52,510 bases of DNA from a virus. Taxonomy: Duplodnaviria > Caudoviricetes. The position numbers were made by a program, and so were the translations under genes. This document shows, in pieces, positions 12,529 to 13,104 of the stretch. The stretch covers positions 1 through 52,510 of IMG/VR virus record IMGVR_UViG_3300010052_000059, one strand, 5' to 3'. The notes below the pieces were generated by a model. That model saw nothing but the letters and a program-made list of their open reading frames with translations. It did no database searches and had not been told where the DNA came from. Every line of letters begins with the position of its first letter. Within the stretch, counting starts at the first letter, position 1.

Positions 12529-12642
12529 GTTAGTTCGTTGTTCGCGTGCCCGGCCATAGCGCCGGAGGGATGGGTGATAGCGCCGGACCGGTTGCTATTT
12601 CCGACGCTCGTCTCTCCTGCGCTGTGGCTACACCGCAGCTCT

Positions 12643-12702
12643 CTCGCTCCTCTTGGGGCGAGTTTTCCCTAGACTTGCCGGGCGGAAACGCCCGGCCTCT
12701 TT
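12643..12702 (+). ncRNA. MmgR/suhB (alpha-r8)-like small RNA, variant seed
   Basis: Hairpin CTCGCTCC-tctt-GGGGCGAG, single-stranded TTTTCCCTAGACTT, terminator-like GCCGGGCG-gaaa-CGCCCGGC; family resemblance from memory. Confidence 0.5.
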
Positions 12703-12718
12703 GGGGGATCTTTTGTAA

Positions 12719-12772
12719 GCGCTTCGGATGCCAGTTTTTGGAGGCTCGCCTCCGGCAAGACGGCATCCGCGC
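12719..12772 (+). repeat. UUC-bulged hairpin motif copy 1 (extended loop)
   Basis: GCGC-TTC-GGATGCC...GGCATCC-GCGC. Confidence 0.8.
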
Positions 12773-12839
12773 GGATTTAGCCCGAATGGGCGCGTGAGTT
12801 GAGCGGGACCGGTGCCGGCGTACCGCTCGAAACGATTTC

Positions 12840-12919
12840 ACTGCGGTAGCTCAGCGGCAGAGCGCGAGGCGTCGCGAGACGTGTCGAGGCCGGCGGTTCA
12901 ATCCCGCCTCGCAGTTCCA
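12840..12919 (+). ncRNA. tRNA-like RNA without an anticodon loop
   Basis: Acceptor ACTGCGG/TCGCAGT+T-CCA; D arm GCTC-AGCGGCA-GAGC; T arm GGCGG-TTCAATC-CCGCC; central arm CGAGGCGTC-GCGA-GACGTGTCG. Confidence 0.85.
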
Positions 12920-13055
12920 TCGCTTTGTGTGCGTCGCATGTTCTCACCTCTGGGTCCTTCATTCGGTCAGCCGGTCTGAATCTAAGCAGGCCGGCGGACT
13001 GAAGGACAAGGGGTTCAACGCGAACGGGGGTTCGTATGCTGGGGGCACACACAAC

Positions 13056-13104
13056 GACCGGAGGCTGGCGCCAGCGCTTGAGCGCCGCCGTCGGTCTTTT
13101 TTTT
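13056..13104 (+). terminator. Intrinsic terminator (tR-like)
   Basis: GACCG..GGC.GGCGC / GCGCC.GCC..CGGTC stem followed by T8. Confidence 0.8.

Follow-up and report, generated by a model that had tools for sequence, protein, structure and literature searches.

The leader behind the cro-like gene and its relatives

The window considered here is the whole of a 52.5-kb virus record from IMG/VR, and the subject of the analysis is the interval that lies directly behind the cro-like gene of the early rightward operon (12529-13104), within which a tRNA look-alike without an anticodon is found. A sequence-only reading had described this interval as a non-coding RNA cluster of about 600 bp. The description holds for 12529-13035 (about 507 nt), which is a non-coding leader, and fails for its end, since the open reading frame (ORF) 13036-13812 begins within the interval, so that the last ~70 nt, including the T8 hairpin, are the 5´ end of a gene. 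All seven structures listed in that reading are present in the sequence and in the folds, at or near the places first assigned to them. The leader and the genes that border it comprise the following features, with the z-scores of the folds calculated against dinucleotide shuffles.

11384-12199, minus strand: gene of a CI-like repressor (Pfam Peptidase_S24, 4.5e-13, with a weak helix-turn-helix (HTH) match; PHROG phrog_4, transcriptional repressor, 1.8e-21)
12193-12528, plus strand: cro-like small HTH gene, the first of the rightward operon (PHROG phrog_8008, DNA-binding protein, 2.2e-4)
12621-12639, plus strand: small hairpin of 7 bp (-11.6 kcal/mol, z -2.95)
12643-12708, plus strand: alphaR8/MmgR-like module (Rfam RF00519, 22.0 bits against a gathering score (GA) of 41; fold of -44.8 kcal/mol, z -5.25)
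12719-12772, plus strand: bulged motif, a dispersed palindromic repeat in its long form (pattern search; z -3.5)
12799-12830, plus strand: hairpin just upstream of the tRNA-like element (-16 kcal/mol, z -1.7)
12840-12919, plus strand: anticodon-less tRNA look-alike (ARAGORN, the Rfam tRNA model and a minimum-free-energy cloverleaf)
12946-13014, plus strand: long interrupted hairpin, with the loop AAUCUAAG at 12979-12986 (-41.2 kcal/mol, z -6.29)
13036-13812, plus strand: conserved ORF of 258 aa, with a short N-terminal hydrophobic stretch, an unconserved linker and a winged-helix-like C-terminal domain
13056-13104, plus strand: hairpin (13056-13096) followed by T8 (13097-13104), resembling an intrinsic terminator (z -3.2) and occupying codons 7-23 of the ORF
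13115-13265, plus strand: linker-coding part of the ORF, with four direct GAGTCCAYGG repeats

Four small ORFs are open in the interval (12546-12797, 12927-13169 and both reverse ORFs), and it could be argued that these code for small proteins and that the structures are incidental. ORFs of 80-103 aa are indeed open on both strands, but open frames of such size are expected at 61-65% G+C, and the G+C content of all four is flat, at 0.59-0.67 in every codon position. In the neighbouring genes, the repressor excepted, it amounts to 0.45-0.52 at the second codon position (GC2) and 0.71-0.81 at the third (GC3); the corresponding values are 0.46 and 0.63 for the repressor gene, and the three positions of the cro-like gene show 0.65/0.50/0.71. 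Furthermore, the small ORFs match no Pfam or PHROG family, and their translations are not conserved in the four relatives compared by tblastn, where a single match passes 1e-3, in a different frame and over the beginning of the next gene, which is conserved as DNA. Small proteins are regarded as highly improbable products of this interval. The pattern that had been named beforehand as incompatible with a structured RNA, namely small ORFs conserved as proteins and structures that are not, was not observed, and the structural modules recur in relatives.

A blastn search with 12100-13400 gave no match among 50,697 phage records. When the leader DNA was compared with 401 Hyphomicrobiaceae genomes, 62 of them showed a match at E <= 0.01; the homologous locus was found on contig 21 of G326 only (L083/L119), and G294 showed the palindromic repeat. 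The other genome matches listed (20-77 nt, G+C-rich, E 1.5e-5 or worse) were dropped as chance, and six of them (five places, four loci), when inspected, all lay in unrelated sequence or in simple palindromes. The C-terminal domain of the 258-aa ORF, used as a protein query, returned the G326 prophage again, together with seven more distant loci, among them L118, in which repressor, cro-like gene and leader are laid out as in the window. The direct-repeat pattern downstream led to L178 and L188 in IMG/VR, and a metagenome scan added L221 and L222, with L220 being the same phage as L178. Six distinct relatives are therefore available (L083 = L119, L118 = L174, L178 = L220, L188, L221 and L222), making seven phages with the window. 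Searches for related loci with the repressor as query gave one distant viral locus and none in the genomes; genome searches with the Rep protein and with alignment A3 gave the G326 prophage again and nothing else, and nothing was found in IMG/VR with alignment A2. A close relative is represented by metagenome contigs of run X1, which are about 98% identical over the ORF region and 82-88% identical over the leader.

The order of repressor, cro-like gene, leader and the same ORF family is common to the six relatives, and the cro-like gene has a homologue of 61% identity at the same place in L178. The RNA modules also recur in related phages, always on the strand of the cro-like gene, and are found there in other orders and combinations. 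As judged from these comparisons, the leader is a mosaic of separately conserved RNA modules and not one unit. The earlier idea of a single RNA cluster with tRNA-like punctuation keeps its second half, which is reasonable given a tRNA shape in the tRNA slot of the relatives, whereas the single unit gives way to the mosaic.

A tRNA shape without an anticodon

The element at 12840-12919 matches the Rfam tRNA model (RF00005) with 42.1 bits against a GA of 29 (E 3.2e-7 on 1.4 kb, 1.2e-5 on the whole window), and it was not picked up in a fast-filter run of Rfam. The acceptor stem has 7 bp, both the D and the T arm are present, position 73 is U and the CCA is encoded, with all 7+4+5 stem pairs intact; U8, A14, the GG of the D loop and the T-loop UUCAAUC are present by inspection. 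The canonical 5-bp anticodon stem and 7-nt loop, with U33 and an anticodon, are absent, and the corresponding arm (12865-12886) forms 3+5 pairs that are capped by a GCGA tetraloop (12874-12877). The arm region measures 16 nt versus 11 in the tRNA model, and the whole score deficit sits there. ARAGORN labels the element 'tRNA-Ala cgc' because its search forces an anticodon, which would need the stem to be unpaired. From its predicted structure, the look-alike should be unable to decode. The identities of alanine and serine tRNAs are independent of the anticodon (G3:U70 and a long variable arm); neither is evident here, because position 3:70 is U:A and the long variable arm is absent, with U73 as the discriminator.

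The slot between the cro-like gene and the ORF is filled by a real tRNA gene in three of the relatives:

L083, 1004-1080: tRNA-Met(CAU), 60.7 bits, positions 1:72 unpaired (U-U)
L118, 4006-4081: tRNA-Met(CAU), 63.8 bits, positions 1:72 unpaired (C-U)
L178, 9193-9268: tRNA-Met(CAU), 52.7 bits, positions 1:72 unpaired (G-A)

An unpaired 1:72 is a mark of bacterial initiator tRNA; it was marked by the Rfam alignments for L083 and L178 and recognized by inspection for L118. The window and L083 align on both sides of the slot, and the look-alike therefore occupies the place of the L083 tRNA-Met. With the phage tRNA genes (RF00005 and the sister tRNA-Met) the look-alike shares slot, strand, 7/4/5-bp stems, D/T-loop bases, CCA and a score above gathering. 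It differs from them in the lack of a 7-nt anticodon loop, in an arm that is 5 nt longer, and in D and acceptor stems that bear no relation to the sister tRNA-Met genes. No close parent tRNA was found in four host-type genomes, which gave just 15-35 nt matches.

The slot of the remaining relatives holds no tRNA in L221, a 108-aa ORF (2393-2719) that combines an HTH with a domain of the GcrA type (Pfam, 28.9 bits) in L222, and 475 nt (4596-5070, minus strand) with flat codon G+C, no Rfam match and a z of -1.34 in L188.

An X1 contig that covers 12788-13001 shows how the element varies. The 57-nt tRNA body carries 3 substitutions, one of which turns a G-C pair of the T stem into G-U, and the 23-nt arm carries 6 substitutions and 4 indel letters. 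When this variant was rebuilt by script, a cloverleaf was obtained again, with the arm as a long closed helix (2+5 pairs and an 8-nt loop). A body that is conserved and an arm that is rewritten yet helical argue, from this one variant, for selection on the tRNA shape without decoding. Moreover, a tRNA shape in a slot that is filled by a real tRNA in relatives would fit a 'punctuation' of the precursor.

It could be objected that the locus holds a dying tRNA gene, ordinary terminators and selfish repeats, that is, spacer DNA with no function at the RNA level beyond termination. Consistent with this, the slot appears to be dispensable (nothing in L221, a GcrA-like ORF in L222 and an insert without coding or folding signal in L188), the MmgR-like unit of the window is degenerate, and the leader diverges from X1 faster than the next gene does. 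Decay, however, should strike all arms, and what is found are intact stem pairs and conserved loop bases, a retained CCA, and an arm that is fully paired with a GNRA cap and that the sole variant swaps for another helix while sparing the body. A gene in decay is considered an unlikely account of the locus.

Somewhat more doubtful still is the view of the look-alike as a decoy or inhibitor, which would be matured like a tRNA and would occupy a host protein that binds tRNA bodies (a tRNA-cleaving defence nuclease, a modification enzyme or a synthetase) while offering no anticodon loop to cut. A conserved body with an arm free to vary would suit this role, as would the unpaired 1:72 of the sister tRNA-Met genes, and phage tRNAs have been proposed to counter host anticodon nucleases, VapC included (PMC10264068). 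On the other side, no defence system or target was identified here, nothing separates a decoy from a pure processing signal, and the element is present in single copy, which leaves no dosage argument.

The tRNA genes of phages are commonly put down to codon supply or to evasion of host nucleases, and an RNA that lacks an anticodon and looks competent for maturation fits neither, the less so as it trades places with a sister tRNA-Met. Such an element would point to the tRNA shape as a processing or decoy device in the earliest transcript of a temperate phage. No published phage anticodon-less tRNA mimic was found in a limited literature search.

A module of alphaR8 ancestry and a dispersed repeat

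The module at 12643-12708 consists of a first hairpin (12643-12662), a C/U-rich core GUUUUCCCUAGACUU (12662-12676) and a second hairpin with a GAAA loop (12677-12696), behind which the purine-rich 12700-12708 is predicted to pair back onto the core. Its match to RF00519 (suhB/MmgR) reaches E 0.08 on 1.4 kb and is unlisted at E <= 0.05 on the whole window. The host-type genomes harbour two or three tandem MmgR/alphaR8 genes of 56.3-74.3 bits each (for example at G001:C4:506839-507442, with like places in G002, G003 and G219). The 11-mer CCCUAGACUUG is identical between these genes and the window module, and the order of hairpin, core and hairpin is common to both. Furthermore, UCCCUAGAC recurs in L178, L118 and L222, and L222 carries at the same place, just upstream of its GcrA-like ORF, a true member of the MmgR family (2206-2279, 47.4 bits, above the cut-off). 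No match to RF00519 was found at E <= 1 in L083, L118, L178, L188 or L221; L221 keeps UUUCCUCCC, and L188 has another C/U-rich core. In the window, in L222, in L188 and in one L118 unit, a stretch of purines downstream of the second hairpin is predicted to pair with the core.

Sub-threshold matches to RF00519 (about 20-30 bits) are common in G+C-rich genomes, with 48 listed at E <= 1 in five genomes, so the Rfam score alone cannot carry the link to MmgR. What carries it is the 11-mer in common with the host-type genes, together with the layout and the member in L222. RNAs of the alphaR8 family expose a single-stranded 10-mer seed behind a weak hairpin and, through this seed, repress many transport and carbon-metabolism mRNAs (PMC12559287), acting as anti-Shine-Dalgarno repressors (PMC12559287, PMC7143759). 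With MmgR of Sinorhizobium meliloti and SisA-D of Caulobacter, the module shares the weak 5´ hairpin, the C/U-rich core ending in CCCUAGACUUG and the G+C-rich hairpin, along with a sister phage member above the family cut-off. In contrast to them, it is phage-borne and does not lie beside a formylglutamate amidohydrolase gene, and it scores 22 bits where 41 would be required. The family 10-mer UUUCCUCCCU is shortened in the window to UUUUCCCU, which is 2 nt less and lacks CCUCC, the core is predicted to be paired with 12700-12708 (the 5´ hairpin being present), and a U tail is missing. The window copy fails two defining features of the family and is not filed as a member; the name MmgR-like, as first given to it, is kept as a statement of ancestry. 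The phage group as a whole carries alphaR8-derived modules behind cro, from intact to worn, which shows that phages of Alphaproteobacteria have copies of a host regulator in these states. A limited literature search found no publication on a phage-borne MmgR.

A second property of the module is its likeness to a terminator. An 8-bp G+C hairpin is followed by CUCUUUGGGGG and the extended hairpin by UCUUUUGU. Lengthened by the pairing of core and purines, the second hairpin looks, in the folding model, like a first and weak terminator. A simple terminator scan lists 12691-12705, but its site count equals the chance expectation.

It had been suggested that a polycistronic precursor of small RNAs may stand in for cII here and govern the choice between lysis and lysogeny, or may reprogramme the host through RNA. 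The leader does lie directly behind cro and on the same strand, it contains an alphaR8-type module, whose family represses mRNAs of transport and carbon metabolism (PMC12559287), and a true family member stands at the same place in L222. The seed of the window module, however, is without CCUCC and predicted to be paired, and nothing links the cluster to the decision. A cII-like ORF was indeed not recognized, as that suggestion had it, but a conserved protein gene follows at 13036 (13036-13812; no Pfam or PHROG family, and no shown likeness to cII), which also weakens the notion of RNA acting instead of protein. The proposal is seen as improbable.

The extended bulged motif (12719-12772), which had been singled out in the sequence-only reading, is present and stable (z -3.5). 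It is not private to the leader, being one of six window copies of a dispersed repeat of the form GCGC-UUC-GGAUGCC ... GGCAUCC-GCGC, a nested palindrome with an inner hairpin. By pattern search, the repeat occurs 6 times in the window, 14 times in G326 (12 of these on its 16.7-kb prophage contig), 200 times in G294, once in G001 and not at all in G219, and a reversed control pattern gave 0-2 matches. Copies are found in both orientations and differ in their inner inserts. The other window copies (GGCGC-TTC-GGATGCC..GCATCC-GCGCC) lie at 13761-13783, 18424-18452, 20421-20449, 26368-26390 and 28791-28812 (minus strand), and some appear at or inside gene ends. As in REP/BIME-type and phage dispersed repeats, a short nested palindrome is present in many copies, in both orientations and with variants of the inner hairpin; unlike the REP/BIME type, it is concentrated on the phage, as the G326 copies illustrate. 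In L083, two copies in opposite orientations (2636-2660 and 2808-2832) enclose a segment of about 150 nt upstream of the replication-initiator gene and could form a long-range stem; an Rfam match to MIR918 at this pair was discarded as an echo of the palindromes.

The hairpin at 12799-12830 is not beyond chance, as its z was reached by 9 of 200 shuffles. Further sub-threshold Rfam matches in the interval (mir-184, SorX, Plastid-ycf2 on the reverse strand and others) were put down to chance or to echoes of hairpins and of the tRNA shape.

A terminator-like hairpin within the next gene and a proposed gating of replication

The ORF that follows the leader begins with ML and continues in frame to the same C-terminal domain in the window, L083, L118, L178 and L188 (209-258 aa), and its frame is open in L221 and L222 too. 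More distant homologues have a hydrophobic N-terminal helix, and of five homologues in the database, four have gene calls of the long form. The 258-aa protein matches no Pfam or PHROG family. AlphaFold gives a pLDDT of about 90 for residues 100-200, and a fold search found no PDB match at E <= 0.001 (best E 0.09). Most of the weak PDB rows listed are winged-helix DNA binders, and these weak but mutually consistent rows, together with an Atlas lead at 0.87-0.90, hint at a winged-helix domain. Beyond this ORF, the replication-initiator gene is found at 14479-15486.

A hairpin followed by exactly T8 is present in six of the seven phages, 61-75 nt past the start of the ORF, with stems of unrelated sequence. 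In the five frames displayed, the codons of the T run are CTT TTT TTT, and L178 shows the same phase by reading. The three AT-ending codons are kept in every lineage despite a GC3 of 0.71-0.81, which argues for selection on the T run itself. By sequence, the element is an intrinsic terminator, that is, a G+C-rich hairpin with a U run that is conserved in relatives, and termination is predicted. Ribosomes that follow the polymerase suppress intragenic terminators. The arrangement suggests that translation of the 258-aa ORF decides whether transcription continues into the replication genes. It shows that the opening codons of a gene can hold a conserved strong terminator, which would suggest a translation-dependent gating of replication genes.

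The direct repeats GAGTCCAYGG follow closely, with four of the six window matches (up to 1 mismatch) clustered at 13115-13265. The start-to-start spacings are 40 and 45 among the three exact copies and 56 from the copy with 1 mismatch. None of these distances can be divided by three, which puts the copies in different reading frames. Comparable repeats stand at the corresponding position in each of the six relatives, which indicates sites at the DNA level. It is plausible that they are origin iterons or autoregulatory sites for the winged-helix-like domain of the ORF itself.

The long hairpin at 12946-13014 shares its loop AAUCUAAG with a long hairpin of L083, and the loop of L188 reads GAUCUAAC; the stem sequence is different in each. 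The X1 changes listed for this hairpin fall in bulges or give a G-U pair. The locus may be compared here with the nutR-tR1-cII region on the textbook map of lambda: it lies directly behind cro, terminator-like hairpins precede the replication genes, and the hairpin with the conserved loop might in principle serve a protein as a boxB-like site. In contrast to lambda, there is no boxA/boxB match, the strong terminator sits inside a gene, and no N-, Q- or cII-like protein was recognized. The loop has no nutL-like second copy in the window, and a lambda-like pair of nut sites is for this reason not supported; the combination of a boxB-like hairpin in both early operons with an N-like protein was not found.

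Taken together, the favoured interpretation, to which a probability of roughly 0.55 is assigned, is that the interval is a non-coding leader running from the cro-like gene to the first gene of the replication block, a mosaic of RNA modules whose transcript is held in check by terminators and cleaved at the tRNA look-alike. Polymerase starting at the early rightward promoter would traverse the leader, and host RNase P and the 3´-end enzymes would recognize the tRNA body and cut there. This cut would release a stable RNA of 80 nt that is unable to decode, and would also part the cro/small-RNA section of the message from the replication-gene section. The two terminator-like hairpins would restrict the transcription that reaches the replication genes, and the second would be passable only if ribosomes translating the ORF, or an unknown factor, block its hairpin.

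tRNA-like processing signals are known from the t-elements of plant mitochondria, from mitochondrial tRNA punctuation and from the mascRNA of MALAT1. As in these, a non-decoding tRNA shape stands between functional parts of a transcript, here with the cro/small-RNA part on one side and the ORF at 13036 on the other, and cutting by RNase P and 3´-end enzymes would be expected. T-elements and mascRNA are organellar or nuclear and have shown cleavage, whereas cleavage of the look-alike is predicted from sequence; moreover, the look-alike is part of the early leader of a temperate phage and a real tRNA fills the same slot in relatives.

Several observations weigh against this interpretation of the leader. 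Among RNA runs, none was found to contain the sequence. The stability of the tRNA-like element is unremarkable (z only -0.72), and its identity rests for this reason on the covariance-model match. Its D and acceptor stems differ from those of the relatives' tRNA-Met, which indicates a replacement and not a mutated copy, and the look-alike could be a recently captured, decaying gene. A pattern scan of IMG/VR found no further copies, and the single 21-nt match of the corresponding genome scan, on a Phycisphaerales contig, lay in unrelated sequence without an ARAGORN tRNA and was rejected as chance. The X1 contig is the sole known variant, and it was rebuilt from a difference list that falls short by 3 substitutions and 2 gap letters, so that its details may be off. 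On the side of the alphaR8-like module, the gathering score is passed by only one of the seven phages (L222), and the shortened seed, the missing U tail and the frequency of sub-threshold matches count in the same direction. Finally, no antiterminator or N-, Q- or cII-like protein was recognized with Pfam and PHROGs (25 ORFs compared with PHROGs, 14 of them without a family), and a sigma-70 scan gave no promoter-like site in the leader, although the scan also missed the expected divergent early promoters and is little informative.

A more ambitious version, for which only a slim chance is seen, would make the look-alike a working RNA. Its constant tRNA body would carry an exchangeable arm that sets what is bound or blocked (a tRNA-directed defence nuclease or another RNA), it would be matured by host tRNA enzymes when the prophage is induced, and with the alphaR8-derived module it would form a small-RNA operon that acts on host translation and carbon-uptake control before the replication genes.

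The gene content around the leader is that of a prophage. The left end of the window carries a recJ gene (Pfam DHH, DHHA1 and RecJ_OB), with a best relative of 84% in a Hyphomicrobium metagenome-assembled genome, followed by an ordinary tRNA-Glu at 2800-2874. As the remainder is phage-like, the window is read as a prophage with some host flank, and the sequence indicates a lambda-like prophage that adjoins recJ and tRNA-Glu in a Hyphomicrobium-like host. A 435-aa ORF (2897-4204, minus strand) adjoins the tRNA-Glu at the prophage end, in the position of an integrase, and matches nothing in Pfam or PHROG. The left arm also contains a Lar-like gene (4359-5507) and a PAPS-reductase-like gene (5987-6814). 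Three separate DNA methyltransferase genes were identified with PHROGs at 16082-16786 (1e-59), 17486-18514 (3.7e-62) and 23996-25486 (6.1e-61).

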